Source: a virus (lineage: Duplodnaviria > Heunggongvirae > Uroviricota > Caudoviricetes). Taken from it: a stretch of DNA of 9,150 nt. Shown here one piece after another: positions 1,515 to 6,136 of this stretch. The translations under genes were made by a program, and so were the position numbers. How positions within the stretch are numbered: the first letter of the stretch is position 1; the number at the start of each line of letters is the position of its first letter. Under the pieces are notes generated by a model. The model was not told the DNA's origin and ran no database searches. It saw only the letters and a list, made by a program, of their open reading frames with translations. The stretch lies in the IMG/VR virus record IMGVR_UViG_2698536574_000022; one strand, given 5' to 3'.

Positions 1515-1725
1515 AGCCTGCTTCTCCTTGCCTTTCGGCACGTAAGAGGCTAACCTAGATTTGCCGTTCATAGATTGAGCCTCAGATTAATGTTAAGCGT
1601 CTTGCAGGACGCGTAATGTTAACTGGGGCTTTTCTCTATCTGCCTTTGGTGTTCATGCCTGAGACAGATAGCCTCAAGCACCCGCAGCCATTCTACTTAA
1701 CTCCCGTTACCTCGCCAATATGAAA

Positions 1726-1815
1726 TCAGTCAGAAAGGCGATCCATAAGAACAACAGCAAGGCAATAAATTGCCATTACAGCAGCAATAGCCAGCGCACA
1801 TTTGAGAACCAGCAC
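1726..1815 (-). CDS. Candidate small hydrophobic peptide (29 aa), possible type I toxin-like or small membrane protein
   Basis: Not in the ORF track (below size cutoff). Consensus SD AGGAGG (rc of 1821-1826), 5-nt spacer, GTG at 1815-1813, TGA at 1726-1728. Translation (M)LVLKCALAIAAVMAIYCLAVVLMDRLSD: one hydrophobic helix with a charged C-terminal tail. No homolog recalled. Confidence 0.3.
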   Translation of the reverse strand: MLVLKCALAIAAVMAIYCLAVVLMDRLSD

Positions 1816-2138
1816 CACAACCTCCTGTATTGGACGTACACCAGTCCTGATAAATATGAGGCTGTCTCGTCAGTGATTCAATACAACTATTGGGTATAGT
1901 TTCTGTGATTTTGTTCTGTAGAAATGGAACATAATAACCTGTCACCACCAGCACTTCTTTAAATACGCCAAGTCCGACGCAAGCTAACCTTCTAGCCCGC
2001 TTTGAGCGAAGAACGGACTGAGTAATTCAGGCCGTTAGCGACACTATGACATCATTAGCAACCAACTAGGAGTTGGTAATAGATGAGTTAATTAATTGAT
2101 TAAAAACCGACGATTTTACTAGATTACGGGAAGAAGAA

Positions 2139-2156
2139 AGGCCGCTGGTACGGCCT
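2139..2156 (-). terminator. Weak intrinsic terminator after the small coiled-coil gene
   Basis: Hairpin AGGCCG-CTGGTA-CGGCCT at 2139-2156; minus-strand downstream sequence is TTCTTCTTCCC (pyrimidine-rich, imperfect U-tract). Sits 26 nt past the stop of the 2182..2379 ORF. Confidence 0.4.
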
Positions 2157-2181
2157 CCCAGAGACTAGTCTATTGTTATGC

Positions 2182-2379
2182 TTAGAAACGCTTTTCTATC
2201 TCTTTTTCTCTTTCGTTTATTGCATCGTCAATGATTTTTTTTGCTGAATTAATTTGTGGTGTTTTTTCTGGTAATACATCTTCAAGATCTTTGGCAATTT
2301 TCTTTAATTTATCGATTTCTTTAGTTAAATCAGTTACAGATTTATCCGCTATTGACTTTGTCATTTTTCCATATTCCAT
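2182..2379 (-). CDS. Hypothetical small K/E-rich coiled-coil protein (65 aa)
   Basis: Track ORF MEYGKMTKSIADKSVTDLTKEIDKLKKIAKDLEDVLPEKTPQINSAKKIIDDAINEREKEIEKRF. AT-rich codon usage like the rest of the insert, followed by its own hairpin. No strong SD; alternative start at ATG 2364. Confidence 0.45.
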   Translation of the reverse strand: MEYGKMTKSIADKSVTDLTKEIDKLKKIAKDLEDVLPEKTPQINSAKKIIDDAINEREKEIEKRF

Positions 2380-2552
2380 TCAATTTATTTATCAATCAGT
2401 TACCCGTAAACCTTATCATGGATTCCAATTATCGACAGCTGGGATTTTTACTTTCTTGATCTGCCCCAGGCGAATGACATATCCCCATTAACCAATGTCC
2501 GCTCCTAGCACTTAGTAGACATTAATAGATTGTAAGCGTTCCCGTCATGTAG

Positions 2553-2933
2553 CGGTCACCGATTGGTGATGAATTGAAGCGGATCATTGATGAAAGTCGC
2601 AATAACGTGGCCAGCCCATTTATCGTTCACCAGATCCCGGAACGGCAGGTTAAACGCAGCAAAGAAGTTTCTCATCCCACTCAAGTTGCACCAGACTATT
2701 TGAGTCGGTCGTTTTCAGCTACGCGTGACAAGCTGGGTTTATATGACAAACGGCCGATGGATGAAAGGCCAACCTTTCACGAAATTCGCGCCTTAGCAGC
2801 ACATCTTTTTGATCAGCAGGGCATCGATCCACAAGGACGAATGGCACACAGCGATGCGAAATCAACTAAAATCTACACGCAAAACCATATCGACTGGGTT
2901 GTAGTTCCACATGGAGAAATTAAAGCCAGCTAG
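2553..2933 (+). pseudogene. Lambda-type tyrosine integrase, 3' fragment only (C-terminal ~125 codons)
   Basis: Track ORF 2574..2933 starts at TTG; the frame is open back to a TAG at 2550-2552. C-terminus PTFHEIRALAAHLFDQQGIDPQGRMAHSDAKSTKIYTQNHIDWVVVPHGEIKAS aligns with the lambda Int C-terminus as I recall it (PTFHELRSLSARLYEKQ...LLGHKSDTMASQY...DKIEIK), including the catalytic His and Tyr positions. All three frames upstream of 2550 hit stops within about 20 codons, so the N-terminal ~230 codons of a full integrase are absent. Confidence 0.65.
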
Positions 2934-3074: not shown

Positions 3075-3656
3075 TTATCTTCTTTTCAGTTCCTTGGGAA
3101 GAAAAGCATCTATTTCTTCTTCAGAAAATGTTAAATCTTCTTTGTTTTTTAATGCGTCCTGTGCTTTTTTATAAGCTTCAAATGTTGTACTAGGAGAGCC
3201 TGAATACACTGAATGTAAACTCTCGAGTAACGAATCCCGCTCTGACTGCAATTGCTCGATTGGTTTTTCACCCATTGCTAAGTCTGTAAGCAATGATAAA
3301 TACTTTTCTCGGATTAACCAGATCTCATTTGCAGCCTGCTTATGTTTTTGCGCCAACTCACCAAGGTCATAATCTTTGGTATAAGCGTTAAGAATGAGAA
3401 GCAGTGTTGAAACAACAATCCCAACCCCCGTGCCTACTTCACCCGCGCCGAAAAAAGTTGCTAGAAAGCCTCCAGTAGTTAAGGCGGAGAGAATTATTTG
3501 CCAAAACTTTATAGAAGATAGTCGAGATAGGAGAATGTCTGAGCATTTTTCATGCGTCTTATGTGAGTAAACGACCCGACCATAACACTCTCTGATCTGC
3601 CCTTCTAAAACCCTTCTAGATTCAGGTGTATCCTTAGTCTGGAAATGTTGATCCAT
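3075..3656 (-). CDS. Two-transmembrane effector, SLATT-like (predicted pore-forming or membrane-disrupting partner of the nucleotidyltransferase)
   Basis: Track ORF 3075..3713; preferred start ATG 3656-3654 with GGGAGA about 4 nt upstream, giving MDQHFQTKDTPESRRVLEGQIRECYGRVVYSHKTHEKCSDILLSRLSSIKFWQIILSALTTGGFLATFFGAGEVGTGVGIVVSTLLLILNAYTKDYD... (193 aa). Layout is an N-terminal helix, two hydrophobic segments (WQIILSALTTGGFLATFF and GVGIVVSTLLLILNAY) and a roughly 95-aa helical charged C-terminal region. Overlaps the upstream gene by 23 nt (80 nt if ATG 3713 is used). Confidence 0.7.
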   Translation of the reverse strand: MDQHFQTKDTPESRRVLEGQIRECYGRVVYSHKTHEKCSDILLSRLSSIKFWQIILSALTTGGFLATFFGAGEVGTGVGIVVSTLLLILNAYTKDYDLGELAQKHKQAANEIWLIREKYLSLLTDLAMGEKPIEQLQSERDSLLESLHSVYSGSPSTTFEAYKKAQDALKNKEDLTFSEEEIDAFLPKELKRR

Positions 3657-4515
3657 AAATCTCCCGCCATTTTTGCTTAGCCGACCATTCGCGTTTTGGG
3701 GTCGCCATTTCATGCTCTATAGCTTCGAGTGAAATGTTATAGCACCGTTTTGCTTTATATTGGAAAAGCCCTTTACCATAGACATACTGACCACTTCCTG
3801 GCGCTTTCCAATACTCCTTACTCGTATCTTGATCAGCCATCCATTTGAAGAAATCACGACTCATGAAATCGTAGTAAAGATACGACTTATCTCTATGCGC
3901 CCAATTTTCAATGAATTGATACGCAAGCGTATCAATGAGTAAACCACTTATAGGTACATCCCATTTACGCTTCCAAGCTCTTGCCATTCTACAAAGTTGC
4001 ACCAAATTGTTATTGGTAATGTTATTTCTTAACCTCATTGCAGAAATTTCTGGCTTTGGATTTGTAATCCTCCAACGGCCACCACCGTTCGCATCAGGAA
4101 ATGTGTAACTATCACTAACATTGAGGAAAGCTGGAACGACTTCAAATGTAATTCCATCATTGAACGGTACAAGGATCACTTGACCGTCACCTCTAATACT
4201 AGTGGTAGCATAGGTTTTTTCAATAGATCTCTTAACCGCTTGAAGCAATGCTGACTGCCCATTTCCTAAGTAGCTATTGTATTTTTGATACTCGGAATAT
4301 GGTAGCTGAAAAATCATATCCAGATCGCTCAAGCCTTGCGTAGCTGTGTTCCGACCATATGATCCAACGTAGAGACTATGAGAAGTATCAGAACTGCTAT
4401 CCCAAAAATCCGTATTTAAACGCTTCGTTATATTCCTATATCTAGTTGAAATTGTTCCACCATCTTTTACAGTAAGATTGGAGCAAAATCCGCAAAACCA
4501 CTCAGCTAAACCCAT
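3634..4515 (-). CDS. CD-NTase / SMODS-family nucleotidyltransferase (cGAS/DncV-like; predicted cyclic nucleotide second-messenger synthase)
   Basis: Track ORF 3634..4521 starts at TTG; preferred start ATG 4515-4513 with AAGGA about 8 nt upstream. Translation MGLAEWFCGFCSNLTVKDGGTISTRYRNITKRL...YVGSYGRNTATQGLSDLDMIF...GQVILVPFNDGITFEVVPAF...RWRITNP... shows the Pol-beta-type GS-x11-DxD motif plus a downstream acidic residue in an h-h-F-D-G-hh-EVVP context. About 293 aa, typical of minimal CD-NTases. Assignment is by motif recognition, not a search. Confidence 0.8.
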   Translation of the reverse strand: MGLAEWFCGFCSNLTVKDGGTISTRYRNITKRLNTDFWDSSSDTSHSLYVGSYGRNTATQGLSDLDMIFQLPYSEYQKYNSYLGNGQSALLQAVKRSIEKTYATTSIRGDGQVILVPFNDGITFEVVPAFLNVSDSYTFPDANGGGRWRITNPKPEISAMRLRNNITNNNLVQLCRMARAWKRKWDVPISGLLIDTLAYQFIENWAHRDKSYLYYDFMSRDFFKWMADQDTSKEYWKAPGSGQYVYGKGLFQYKAKRCYNISLEAIEHEMATPKREWSAKQKWREIYGSTFPD

Positions 4516-4661
4516 GCTCAATTCCTTTTCTAAAATCTAATGAAAAATTCAAGGGCGCATGTTCCATGCATCATTGATAACTTTTTTCAGTCAGCTAGAG
4601 CAACATAATTGATACTAACTAGCTGTTTCTTCAAGTGAGTAACCTACTTTAGCATCAAGGT

Positions 4662-4690
4662 ATTATACCTACCAAGCATGGGGAGAAACC
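4662..4690 (-). promoter_or_regulatory. Candidate promoter for the NTase-effector operon
   Basis: Perfect -10 TATAAT on the minus strand (rc of 4662-4667), about 150 nt upstream of the NTase ATG; the -35 is poor (GGTTTC/TGGTTT at 17-18 nt spacing). Position and hexamer only. Confidence 0.3.
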
Positions 4691-4829
4691 ACCACTTAAG
4701 CCATTGAAGTATATAGAGCAGATTTTGTTGAAAAAGCACTGTTTGTCTATACATATGAATATGTGCTTTTAACCAGCAATAGCGCGGCTCTCAGCGTTTT
4801 ACAAGCAGTGTCATGGGGTGTCGGGGATC

Positions 4830-4857
4830 GGAAGTTCAAATCCTCTCGTGCGACCCA
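4830..4857 (+). other. tRNA 3'-end-like fragment (T-arm, acceptor 3' strand, CCA); possible integration-site (att) remnant
   Basis: GGAAG-TTCAAAT-CCTCT (4830-4846; T-loop consensus, stem with one A-C mismatch), then 7-nt CGTGCGA, discriminator C and CCA (4855-4857). No complementary 5' acceptor strand within 80 nt upstream, so this is not a complete tRNA. Confidence 0.35.
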
Positions 4858-4870
4858 AAAGATTATATAA

Positions 4871-4896
4871 ACCAGCCTGTTATTGCTGGTTTTTTA
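4871..4896 (+). terminator. Intrinsic terminator-like hairpin following the tRNA-like fragment
   Basis: ACCAGC-CTGTTATT-GCTGGT (4871-4890) followed by TTTTTTA on the + strand. An inverted copy of the stem sequence (AACCAGCAATA, 4771-4781) lies about 100 bp upstream. Confidence 0.45.
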
Positions 4897-5049
4897 TGCC
4901 TACCTTCCTGGTAGGGAAGCTATGGGGAATTACTGGGGAATCCCCCCCCTTTACCTGCTCCCATTAAACTAACATAGCACGATGTAAGCAACTTCCGCTT
5001 CTGGCACAAAGCGGACAACCACGCTAGCTCTACCCTGTGCCACAAAATG

Positions 5050-5508
5050 TCAATTTACATCTGAACTAATGCACTTTAATCTCGTCACTTCAAAAAAATA
5101 CCGAACATCCCCCTGATAAAACGACAATATCCGCTGCATAACTTCGCTTTTACGACACTCAGTACAAATTATATTATGACGCCTGTCGTAACGACGTATT
5201 TCTCCATCAGGTAATGACCAGATAAGGTCCGGATCAACCGCAGATGGTTTCTTCAGCTTTGCCCTTGAGAGCTTTTTACGGGCATTTTGCCAGTCCTTAC
5301 GCGCCTGTTCAGACGGGAATAACCCGTAACCAGAGTTGTATACATCGCCACTGGCAACCAGCTCTCTGGCCAGAACGCTCATCAGATATCTTGTTGCCCC
5401 AGTTTTAGCTTCCTGTTGTCGTAACGTCTCGCGCCCACTCTGGCGTACGAGTTCAAGAACCTGCCCTTTAATTTTTTCCCGCTCTTCTTGTGTAAAAACT
5501 TTTGCCAC
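5050..5508 (-). CDS. Hypothetical prophage protein (152 aa), distal gene of the replication-side operon
   Basis: Track ORF with GTG start at 5508-5506 preceded by consensus AGGAGG (rc of 5513-5518). Translation (M)AKVFTQEEREKIKGQVLELVRQSGRETLRQQ... No Walker motif (not a DnaC/P-type helicase loader) and no domain I can assign. Confidence 0.6.
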   Translation of the reverse strand: MAKVFTQEEREKIKGQVLELVRQSGRETLRQQEAKTGATRYLMSVLARELVASGDVYNSGYGLFPSEQARKDWQNARKKLSRAKLKKPSAVDPDLIWSLPDGEIRRYDRRHNIICTECRKSEVMQRILSFYQGDVRYFFEVTRLKCISSDVN

Positions 5509-5548
5509 AAGCCCTCCTGAAAATTACCTCATGACCAGAAATACACAC

Positions 5549-6136
5549 TTACCCCCTGAAGCCCGGTGGAATTTCGGTATCCGGTTCAGAAATATGATTC
5601 ACACAACGCTGGTTGTTCGTACCGCTTACCGGGAGCAACCAGGGGTTTTCAAAATTCCGGTCCGGTCCAAAAAACGTCGTCGCTCGCTGAACAAATTCCG
5701 TTCCCGTTTTCCCGGTAGCCGCCAGGTATCTTGCGTAACGCCTCACACCATCCAGCATGGCCTCTGGTGGCACCCCCTCGCGTAATCTGGCCTTCCAGGC
5801 ACTGAAAGCGGATTTCTTCGGGTTTGCCCCAGCACGCAACGGGTATTCCCGCCAGACCTGTTCGAACACATCCGGATAATCTACTCGCCCCACAGGCTGC
5901 CCGGTGTTTTCCGGGACTACCCGATCGGCTTCCCGCTGAATGGCGGAATCGGCTTCAGGCTGCTGCAGTTGGTGTGATTGCTCCGGCCTTGCGGTCATCA
6001 CCTGCTGCACAGCGCCCGAATCGGCTTTCAGCGCATACGCTGAATCGGCTTCCGGTGTCGTGCCTGCTGGCTGACCAGGATTGACGGTCTGAACATCCCC
6101 TGCCTGGTTCGTGGCGTTTTTTACGCCATGGACCAT
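5549..6136 (-). CDS. Replication-associated protein: low-complexity linker plus conserved C-terminal domain
   Basis: Track ORF 5549..6223 begins at TTG; first ATG is 6136-6134 (MVHGVKNATNQ...). Pro/Gln/Ala/Thr-rich linker, then DYPDVFEQVWREYPLRAGANPKKSAFSAWKARLREGVPPEAMLDGVRRYARYLAATGKTGTEFVQRATTFFGPDRNFENPWLLP, which I recognise as a phage replication-protein type of domain (memory, unverified). Its 5' end overlaps the upstream ORF in another frame, so it may be the C-terminal part of a frameshifted single initiator gene. Confidence 0.55.
   Translation of the reverse strand: MVHGVKNATNQAGDVQTVNPGQPAGTTPEADSAYALKADSGAVQQVMTARPEQSHQLQQPEADSAIQREADRVVPENTGQPVGRVDYPDVFEQVWREYPLRAGANPKKSAFSAWKARLREGVPPEAMLDGVRRYARYLAATGKTGTEFVQRATTFFGPDRNFENPWLLPVSGTNNQRCVNHISEPDTEIPPGFRG

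Follow-up and report, generated by a model that had tools for sequence, protein, structure and literature searches.

A conserved 29-codon open reading frame upstream of hok in lambda-like prophages of Escherichia very probably encodes a single-helix membrane microprotein

We analyzed a 9,150-nucleotide stretch of Caudoviricetes DNA (IMG/VR record IMGVR_UViG_2698536574_000022; hereafter the window) and found that a 29-codon open reading frame (ORF) on its minus strand, which lies upstream of the type I toxin gene hokD, is very probably a genuine protein-coding gene. The frame is conserved as coding sequence, its product has the character of a membrane helix, and it is inherited in a modular fashion. 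We are highly confident that it represents a real translated membrane microprotein. We also consider it likely, if less firmly so, that this product is a translated 29-residue inner-membrane microprotein of Escherichia and Shigella lambda-like prophages that would serve as a modulator and not as a silenced toxin.

Coding conservation of the small ORF

The ORF and the signals that precede it are as follows.
1881-1853, minus strand: putative sigma-70 promoter of the ORF, TTGAAT (1881-1876), 17 nt, CATATT (1858-1853), found in a relaxed scan
1826-1821, minus strand: Shine-Dalgarno (SD) sequence AGGAGG, with the 5-nt spacer TTGTG (1820-1816) before the GTG
GTG 1815-1813 to TGA 1728-1726, minus strand: small ORF of 29 codons, read from the sequence, with the product MLVLKCALAIAAVMAIYCLAVVLMDRLSD

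Written from its GTG start, the product is (M)LVLKCALAIAAVMAIYCLAVVLMDRLSD, with 28 more codons after the GTG. An earlier, sequence-only reading of the window had noted AGGAGG, a 5-nt spacer, GTG, 29 codons and a stop at 1726-1815, and all of these elements were confirmed on the minus strand. A program-made listing of ORFs opens the frame one codon earlier, at a GTG at 1818, for a product of 30 aa. Given that the codon at 1818 is GTC, TAT, ATC, GTT, ATT or ATG in relatives and that GTG 1815 is invariant in the main type, we place the start at 1815. The motif AGGAGG-N4-9-RTG occurs twice in the window against 0.64 occurrences expected, and two were reached in 28 of 200 shuffles. Taken alone, the SD-plus-start motif is not beyond chance, and the argument for coding therefore rests on the conservation data.

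A first capture of copies from IMG/VR used a pattern inside the ORF, which fixes codon positions 1 and 2 and biases codon statistics; all 124 complete copies captured in this way are open. A second capture used a hok-leader pattern only, with no reference to the ORF, and the codon tests were rerun on this set. It returned 136 distinct upstream sequences, 72 of which match the ORF. Among these, 66 loci, representing 26 nucleotide haplotypes, have the complete ORF open and without gaps; a divergent version of 34 codons is present in five, and in one a recombination junction lies inside the ORF. The sequence-only reading had named frameshifts or stops in homologues as the observation that would speak against the ORF; the 66 copies captured independently of it are all intact, which favors coding. 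Both sets (66/66 and 124/124) keep the GTG and a purine-rich SD at a fixed spacing, which is the same across all upstream contexts. The SD reads AGGAGG, GGGAGG, AGGAGA or GGGGG in the main type, and AAGGAGG or GGAG in two divergent lineages.

The substitutions separating the 26 haplotypes carry the imprint of a reading frame. Codons 2-29 show 40 substitution events, 20 synonymous and 20 non-synonymous, against a synonymous expectation of 12.2 +/- 2.9 when the same mix of transitions and transversions is placed at random (P=0.006). These events fall on codon positions 1, 2 and 3 in the numbers 11, 10 and 19, and none creates a stop. The ORF frame was the best of all six: the other five had fewer synonymous changes, and four of these also had stop-creating changes. 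In a 65-sequence alignment, composed of the main-type members of the hok-leader set with enough upstream DNA, the sole gap in the ORF is an 11-nt deletion that removes the stop codon, and the flanks have many gaps.

Deeper divergence was assessed with five lineages of the family, which have the following peptides.
Window: MLVLKCALAIAAVMAIYCLAVVLMDRLSD
L007 (same peptide in BL21 and L008): MLVLKCTLAIVAVMAIYCLVIVLMDHLSD
L006: MLALTCVLAIVAVLVIYCLVVAFMERFSD.. (start only)
L239: MLAALKGFVAILAVVAIYCLVVVLMDRLSD
L139 (branch of Sakai ECs_5710): MSDDISLAMEGALAVVAVVGVYCLVVFLMDRLGN

In all ten pairs of these lineages, the Nei-Gojobori (NG86) ratio of non-synonymous to synonymous substitution rates (dN/dS) is 0.17-0.50, with dS ranging from 0.2 to 1.6, and an excess of synonymous over non-synonymous change was found in two non-overlapping lineage pairs (Fisher P=0.004 and P=0.006). 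Relative to the window, L239 has exactly one inserted codon (an in-frame 3-nt insertion). Replacements are conservative, being exchanges within the groups A/V/I/L/M/F, D/E/N, R/H and S/T/G. L2 and L23 are invariant across lineages, A7, L8, A9, A12, V13, Y17, C18, L19, D25 and R26 are nearly so, and the family core reads AL-A-x-x-AV-x-x-[IV]-YCL-x-[VI]-x-[LF]-M-[DE]-[RH]-L. The 34-aa branch (MSDDISLAMEGALAV..YCLVVFLMDRLGN) is about 50% identical, ends at the same stop position and starts with an ATG preceded by AAGGAGG. As judged from these substitution patterns, the amino-acid sequence of the ORF is under purifying selection.

Translation of relatives, peptide character and distribution

Relatives of the ORF are found in published translation surveys. 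The BL21 orthologue VLVLKCTLAIVAVMAIYCLVIVLMDHLSD (NC_012971.2, 1591437-1591524, minus strand) is a member of the Entero67K cluster Escherichia_98807 (Fesenko et al., 2024; PMC11188072 Table S4), which appears there as a table row only, with no function given. In the retapamulin dataset, the orthologue has translation initiation site (TIS) counts of 13 (fraction 1) and ribosome-protected fragment (RPF) counts of 38 (fraction 0.90), and the cluster, with dN 0.074, dS 0.161 and dN/dS 0.46, is flagged as under purifying selection (PMC11188072). In O157:H7 Sakai, the last 34 codons of XECs145 constitute a paralogue of the ORF (Hucker et al., 2017; PMC5597208). XECs145 corresponds to ECs_5710 (34 aa) in the current Sakai record; it belongs to prophage Sp6, where 188 nt separate it from the mok/hok gene ECs_1520 downstream. 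Its ribosome coverage value (RCV), that is, translatome over transcriptome reads per kilobase per million (RPKM), is 4.35 in lysogeny broth (LB) at 37 deg C (transcriptome 79.1, translatome 346.1, coverage 0.99), 1.14 in the brain heart infusion (BHI) control (121.3, 150.1 and 0.84), and 0.01 under BHI stress (73.3, 1.1 and 0.37); the product was predicted to be an inner-membrane protein with one transmembrane (TM) helix (PMC5597208). Ribosome profiling published in these papers supports translation of both the orthologue and the paralogue.

How the ORF would be transcribed is suggested by its upstream sequence. In 113 of 114 copies, the GTG is preceded at a distance of 42-43 nt by the hexamer CATATT, and a -35-like TTGAAK, TTGATT or TTGCTG stands at 17-nt spacing from this hexamer in 99 of the 114, over at least five unrelated spacers. 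Hexamers kept over unrelated spacers are the pattern expected of a real promoter, and TTGAAT-17-CATATT is accordingly a putative weak sigma-70 promoter, whose activity we infer. Some contexts are without it: in the BL21 type, the DUF977 gene takes the place of the promoter directly before the ORF; in L239, an ORF6N gene ends about 50 nt upstream of the ORF and no CATATT hexamer was seen; and in the 34-aa branch, a 27-aa ORF lies 33 nt ahead. Read-through from the early operon is thus suggested as an alternative expression route.

The 29-aa peptide has a grand average of hydropathy (GRAVY) of 1.81, and its most hydrophobic 19-aa window, residues 6-24, scores 2.70, compared with 3.07 for the TM segment of Hok. 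AlphaFold models it as one continuous helix with a predicted local distance difference test (pLDDT) score of 92.5. The description of the product as a hydrophobic single-helix peptide, which the sequence-only reading had offered, is borne out by both, and hydropathy and the model together predict that the ORF product is very probably a single-pass, single-helix membrane microprotein.

Protein homologue searches were run with 40-41-aa in-frame extensions of the ORF, complemented by exact look-ups. A profile search of 1.84 billion representatives gave 26 matches at E<=0.001; every sequence inspected has the family core, and in several the ORF is part of a longer call or a fusion. The named protein matches are all from Escherichia. 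The ORF peptide has no significant Pfam, PHROG, NCBIfam or PADLOC match, and tblastn of the 34-aa branch against sequenced phages returned no match. At the nucleotide level, a 201-nt query centered on the ORF has matches in 3,058 of 5,426 complete E. coli genomes, and at least 80% of it is covered in 1,769 of them, mostly at 90-99% identity. Among isolated temperate phages, Evi, Tritos, mEp460_ev081 and HannyBb carry the ORF as well. In a degenerate scan covering one genome for each GTDB species, family members came from E. albertii, E. ruysiae and Shigella flexneri and no relatives from other genera; two further matches were judged chance. Near-identical E. coli prophage DNA, comprising the ORF and the hok leader, is carried by three short contigs of metagenome-assembled genomes assigned to Collinsella (L231), Ca. 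Scatousia (L233) and Haemophilus (L235), which most likely represent binning contamination. The family is confined to lambda-like phages and prophages of Escherichia and Shigella.

E. coli AUSMDU00014361 (NZ_CP045827.1) has a lambda-like prophage with 100% identity to the window, and the RefSeq record of this genome carries no annotation between a 60-aa hypothetical gene and hokD. Likewise, none of 60 sampled RefSeq complete genomes (60/60) has a feature annotated over the ORF, and in BL21 the sole annotated overlap with the 201-nt query is the end of the DUF977 gene. GenBank does contain the identical peptide, under the name "hypothetical protein" (GCZ25347.1); variants of it are named "membrane protein", and RefSeq has a MULTISPECIES entry for one 29-aa variant. 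The earlier description of the ORF as unannotated therefore holds for the identical RefSeq record and the sampled genomes and fails for GenBank. In phage HannyBb (PP925841.1; L003, 2454-2743), two hypothetical coding sequences (CDSs) are annotated opposite the conserved small ORF; the substitution pattern gives them no support, and they are a probable mis-annotation. A full-text literature search with peptide strings, ECs_5710 and XECs145 found no dedicated paper. The ORF has already been catalogued by large surveys as a microprotein without a characterized function.

The hok/sok neighbor and modularity of the ORF

The downstream neighbor of the ORF is a complete hok/sok cassette. The features of this cassette, together with a conserved segment on the other side of the ORF, are listed below.
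2018-1884, minus strand: conserved upstream segment of about 135 nt, which travels with the ORF module; homology in many genomes begins at 2018
1718-1690, minus strand: hok promoter TTGGCG-17-TAGAAT, the -35 box of which starts 8 nt past the ORF stop
1683-1509, minus strand: hok mRNA leader with the Sok target region (Rfam RF01794 'sok', 110 bits, E=8e-26)
1571-1359, minus strand: mok (ATG 1571) overlapping hokD (CDS 1514-1359), which encodes the type I toxin HokD (WP_000813254.1)
1291-1274, minus strand: intrinsic terminator after hok, AACCCGCTTCGGCGGGTT then a T-run, the first convincing one downstream of the ORF

The hokD ATG lies at 1514, and 211 nt separate it from the ORF stop, in agreement with the roughly 210 nt on the same strand given by the sequence-only reading. 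The suggestion made there that the locus may carry two small membrane peptides also stands, as the ORF is directly upstream of hok and both are encoded. Between the ORF and the hok promoter there is no convincing terminator; the only candidates were two weak terminator-like hairpins, both inside the ORF, which were rejected as too weak and not conserved as such. In the AUSMDU00014361 prophage, the early-right operon runs in the order Cro/CI, YdaT, DUF977, accessory genes, small ORF, hokD, DUF968, RusA and Q. The ORF occupies the accessory-gene slot of this operon, with the replication genes on one side and DUF968/RusA/Q on the other.

Within this slot, the ORF behaves as a unit. Most copies with unrelated flanks (identity 0.3-0.6 over the upstream 100 nt or the downstream 64 nt) retain an ORF identity to consensus of 0.92-1.00, and the divergent L006 lineage has 0.79. 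Among the 108 pattern-captured copies considered for downstream context, hok follows in 97; in the other 11, there is a breakpoint directly past the TGA and no hok, with an opposite-strand accessory gene instead. Conversely, about half of the sampled hokD-type loci are without the ORF. Flank swaps, hok-less copies and ORF-less hokD loci together show that the ORF and hok, usually linked as they are, can be separated, and neither depends on the other. In a "truncated" IMG/VR class, which takes in many prophages, only the last six ORF codons (MDHLSD*) are left, fused in frame to the end of an unrelated upstream gene (..KKRRSDFMDHLSD*); recombination has thus joined the two within the ORF, some 30 nt ahead of the hok -35 box. 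This class corresponds to E. coli matches that include O157:H7 strains.

In relatives, an 8-bp hairpin (GTCCGCTT-N8-AAGCGGAC) marks the start of the conserved upstream segment; in the window this hairpin is degenerate. The segment gave no Rfam match, contains no conserved ORF and, on either strand, folds no better than shuffles. Beside it is a weak divergent promoter-like sequence, GTGATT-16-TATAGT, at 1873-1900 on the plus strand. Further upstream, the region 2130-2364 contains the 60-aa hypothetical gene (2364-2182, minus strand) followed by a terminator-like hairpin, GGCCGTACCAGCGGCC plus TTTCTTCTT, and looks like a separate small insertion between a recombinase fragment and the ORF module. 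When a query included window positions 2019-2200, a single match covering at least 80% of it was found in only 65 genomes. The recombinase fragment is frameshifted (2534-2933, plus strand) and adjoins a pair of genes resembling a cyclic oligonucleotide-based antiphage signaling system (CBASS) in the prophage accessory region (window 3075-5828). The pair consists of a SLATT gene (3656-3075, minus strand), whose SLATT/2TM effector product matches PADLOC "Effector 2TM" with E=1.4e-84, and a SMODS nucleotidyltransferase gene (5828-5187, minus strand); it is interrupted by the IS3-family insertion sequence IS1203 (3971-5184, plus strand), which lies between the two.

The slot upstream of hok is often filled by a small TM ORF. 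Among the 136 distinct hokD-type upstream contexts, 99 have such an ORF ending less than 200 nt from hok, and in at least 73% of the distinct contexts the slot is taken by one of three families with no apparent relation to each other: the ORF family, a 27-aa MxWPEAF peptide and a 59-aa two-TM protein. The 27-aa hydrophobic family (MTWPEAFTTVGIAMAVALVVYSICRWG and variants; loci L023, L089, L139 and L161) has a good SD and is located 30-170 nt upstream of the studied ORF family, often in tandem, or directly upstream of hok. It has no significant Pfam or PHROG match and is sporadically annotated as "bacteriophage protein". The 59-aa ORF has two hydrophobic segments, MKNALQFLFVAFWLF..., and is found directly upstream of hok in the IMG/VR loci L131 and L133. 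This recurrence of small TM ORFs upstream of phage hok is the most interesting point here. That the slot is reserved for small TM peptides and that the ORF peptide works together with Hok is an idea we rate as unlikely; under it, the peptide may be a co-transcribed modulator, an immunity factor or a second membrane-active component, and phage hok/sok would be a three-part module instead of the classic two-part one.

Alternative explanations and biological meaning

The window ORF most closely resembles the Escherichia_98807 orthologue of BL21, with which it shares the GTG start, the length, the position before hokD and 25 of 29 residues (86%); the BL21 copy differs in four residues, in lying directly after the DUF977 gene and in having no CATATT promoter. 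With XECs145/ECs_5710 it shares about 50% identity in the core, the YCL..V.LMDRL motif, the stop position, a location upstream of mok/hok and a lambda-like prophage as host element. In contrast to the window ORF, XECs145/ECs_5710 starts with ATG and encodes 34 aa, being extended at the N terminus by an acidic stretch (MSDDISLAMEG); it follows the 27-aa MxWPEAF ORF in an operon-like arrangement without the TTGAAT/CATATT promoter. Like Hok/Gef proteins (PF01848), the ORF product is small, single-TM, prophage-borne, encoded on the same strand and preceded by a strong ribosome-binding site, but it has no sequence relation to them, and the ORF has no mok-like overlapping frame, Sok-like antisense or long structured mRNA. 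Kinship with Hok was rejected, as hhalign gave a probability of 0.5% against HokD and there was no Pfam match at E<=10. Hok also has a C-terminal Cys-containing domain past its TM helix, and the ORF peptide is without such a domain. Like the ORF peptide, the toxins TisB, ZorO, DinQ, ShoB, Ibs and Ldr are 19-35 residues long and combine a single hydrophobic helix with a polar end; unlike these toxins, the peptide shows no NCBIfam, Pfam or PADLOC homology to known families, no signal of a cognate small RNA (sRNA) and a short untranslated region (UTR), and its paralogue is well translated in normal growth. The regulators AcrZ, MgtS, KdpF and CydX are proteins of less than 50 aa with a single TM helix that act by binding larger membrane proteins; the ORF peptide has no sequence similarity to them, and it is prophage-encoded and restricted to Escherichia and Shigella. 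Its likeness to type I toxins and to small membrane regulators is one of architecture only. The ORF product is an uncharacterized prophage-encoded small membrane protein, neither a Hok/Gef member nor a demonstrated type I toxin.

We propose that the ORF is a mosaic module of its own, which would comprise a weak sigma-70 promoter, an SD and a coding frame. The peptide would be made in lysogens, either from this promoter or by read-through, and, because there is no terminator before the hok promoter, the transcript probably continues into the hok/sok cassette. The peptide would then insert into the inner membrane, where its helix and the conserved YC...LMDRL end may act on another membrane protein of host or phage; superinfection exclusion and membrane-protein regulation are examples of possible roles. 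It is probably not a silenced pore-forming type I toxin. Taken by itself, the choice of modulator over toxin, which is made by analogy, is about evenly balanced.

Several points weigh against this proposal. With most copies 92-100% identical, an intact frame is by itself a test of low power: by a rough estimate, chance would have produced about 1.8 stop-creating events among the 40, and 0 were seen. The evidence for translation comes from relatives in BL21 and Sakai, not from this exact allele or strain, and Sakai reads may multi-map among similar prophages. The start-site signal in BL21 is weak, at 13 reads, and most translated intergenic ORFs in that survey are without signs of selection (PMC11188072). 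The putative promoter matches only 8 of 12 consensus positions; with the transcription start predicted near 1846, the 5' UTR would be about 31 nt long. The positive-inside rule yields an inconsistent topology across the 29-aa and 34-aa branches. Finally, the modulator mode of action, with its putative partner, is drawn by analogy.

The first rival explanation is that the ORF encodes a membrane-damaging peptide, the toxin of a second type I system beside hok/sok, with its translation repressed by an unrecognized RNA; a type I toxin nature was implied by the sequence-only reading. The ORF does resemble TisB, ZorO and DinQ-like toxins in size and hydrophobicity, as well as in its strong SD and polar C-terminal tail, and it adjoins a bona fide type I system. 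Of the traits of such systems, however, the ORF has the small hydrophobic peptide and shows no sign of a linked antitoxin RNA or a structure-silenced mRNA. A consensus scan at relaxed threshold, which weak promoters can escape, found no promoter-like site antisense to or overlapping the ORF or its UTR; no direct repeat could give a trans-complementary sRNA to the ORF mRNA; and an Rfam scan found the hok leader and no other RNA family. The inferred 5' UTR is short, the mRNA fold of 1850-1700 is no more structured than shuffles (z = +0.38), and the peptide matches no toxin family. In some contexts, only the SD and the coding sequence are retained and all else is replaced, so that a linked antitoxin gene would have little space. 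Efficient translation in growing cells would be unexpected for a tightly silenced type I toxin, and that of the paralogue in growing Sakai lysogens (RCV 4.35 in LB) argues against a silenced toxin. Nothing that we found shows the peptide to be a toxin; the type I toxin pattern is unsupported, and we regard this alternative as unlikely.

It is very unlikely that the ORF is an upstream ORF or leader, the translation of which, and not the peptide, tunes read-through or folding of hok mRNA. The ORF stop 8 nt before the hok -35 box, the lack of a terminator between the two and the presence of hok next to 97 of 108 pattern-captured copies would fit such a role; purifying selection on the amino-acid sequence itself, the approximately 10% of copies without hok downstream and the hokD-type loci without the ORF do not. 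The only ORF-hok complementarity, 11 nt between ORF codons 9-12 and the hok start region with one mismatch, was rejected since it is lost in variants and about 1.5 such pairs are expected by chance (our own estimate). A non-coding coincidence, in which the frame is open because the copies are young and the region is spacer or regulatory DNA, would be compatible with the greater than 92% identity of most copies, the chance-level SD-plus-start motif and the usual absence of a call by the Prokaryotic Genome Annotation Pipeline (PGAP). This caveat, which the sequence-only reading had itself voiced, is largely refuted by the synonymous excess, the low dN/dS across lineages with saturated dS, the in-frame indel, the conserved SD and start, the breakpoints at the ORF ends and the ribosome-profiling signals in the orthologue and paralogue, and we now consider it highly improbable. 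The probability is smaller still, close to negligible, that the real gene is a 59-aa ORF on the opposite strand (window 1720-1899, plus strand), as in phage HannyBb. That frame is open with an ATG, and a corresponding CDS is annotated in PP925841.1, but it has no SD and no family match, and read in it the same substitutions are 8 synonymous versus 32 non-synonymous, one of them creating a stop.

Our findings describe a conserved, very probably translated microprotein that was overlooked by the standard RefSeq annotation of the AUSMDU00014361 genome. Its surrounding sequence occurs in about a third of complete E. coli genomes. The ORF merits annotation as a CDS; the finding overturns nothing known. 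Its tight yet separable linkage to hok/sok raises the question of whether the phage-borne type I cassette has a membrane-peptide partner, and with the ORF the small membrane proteins encoded by prophages, a growing class, gain one more well-supported family.

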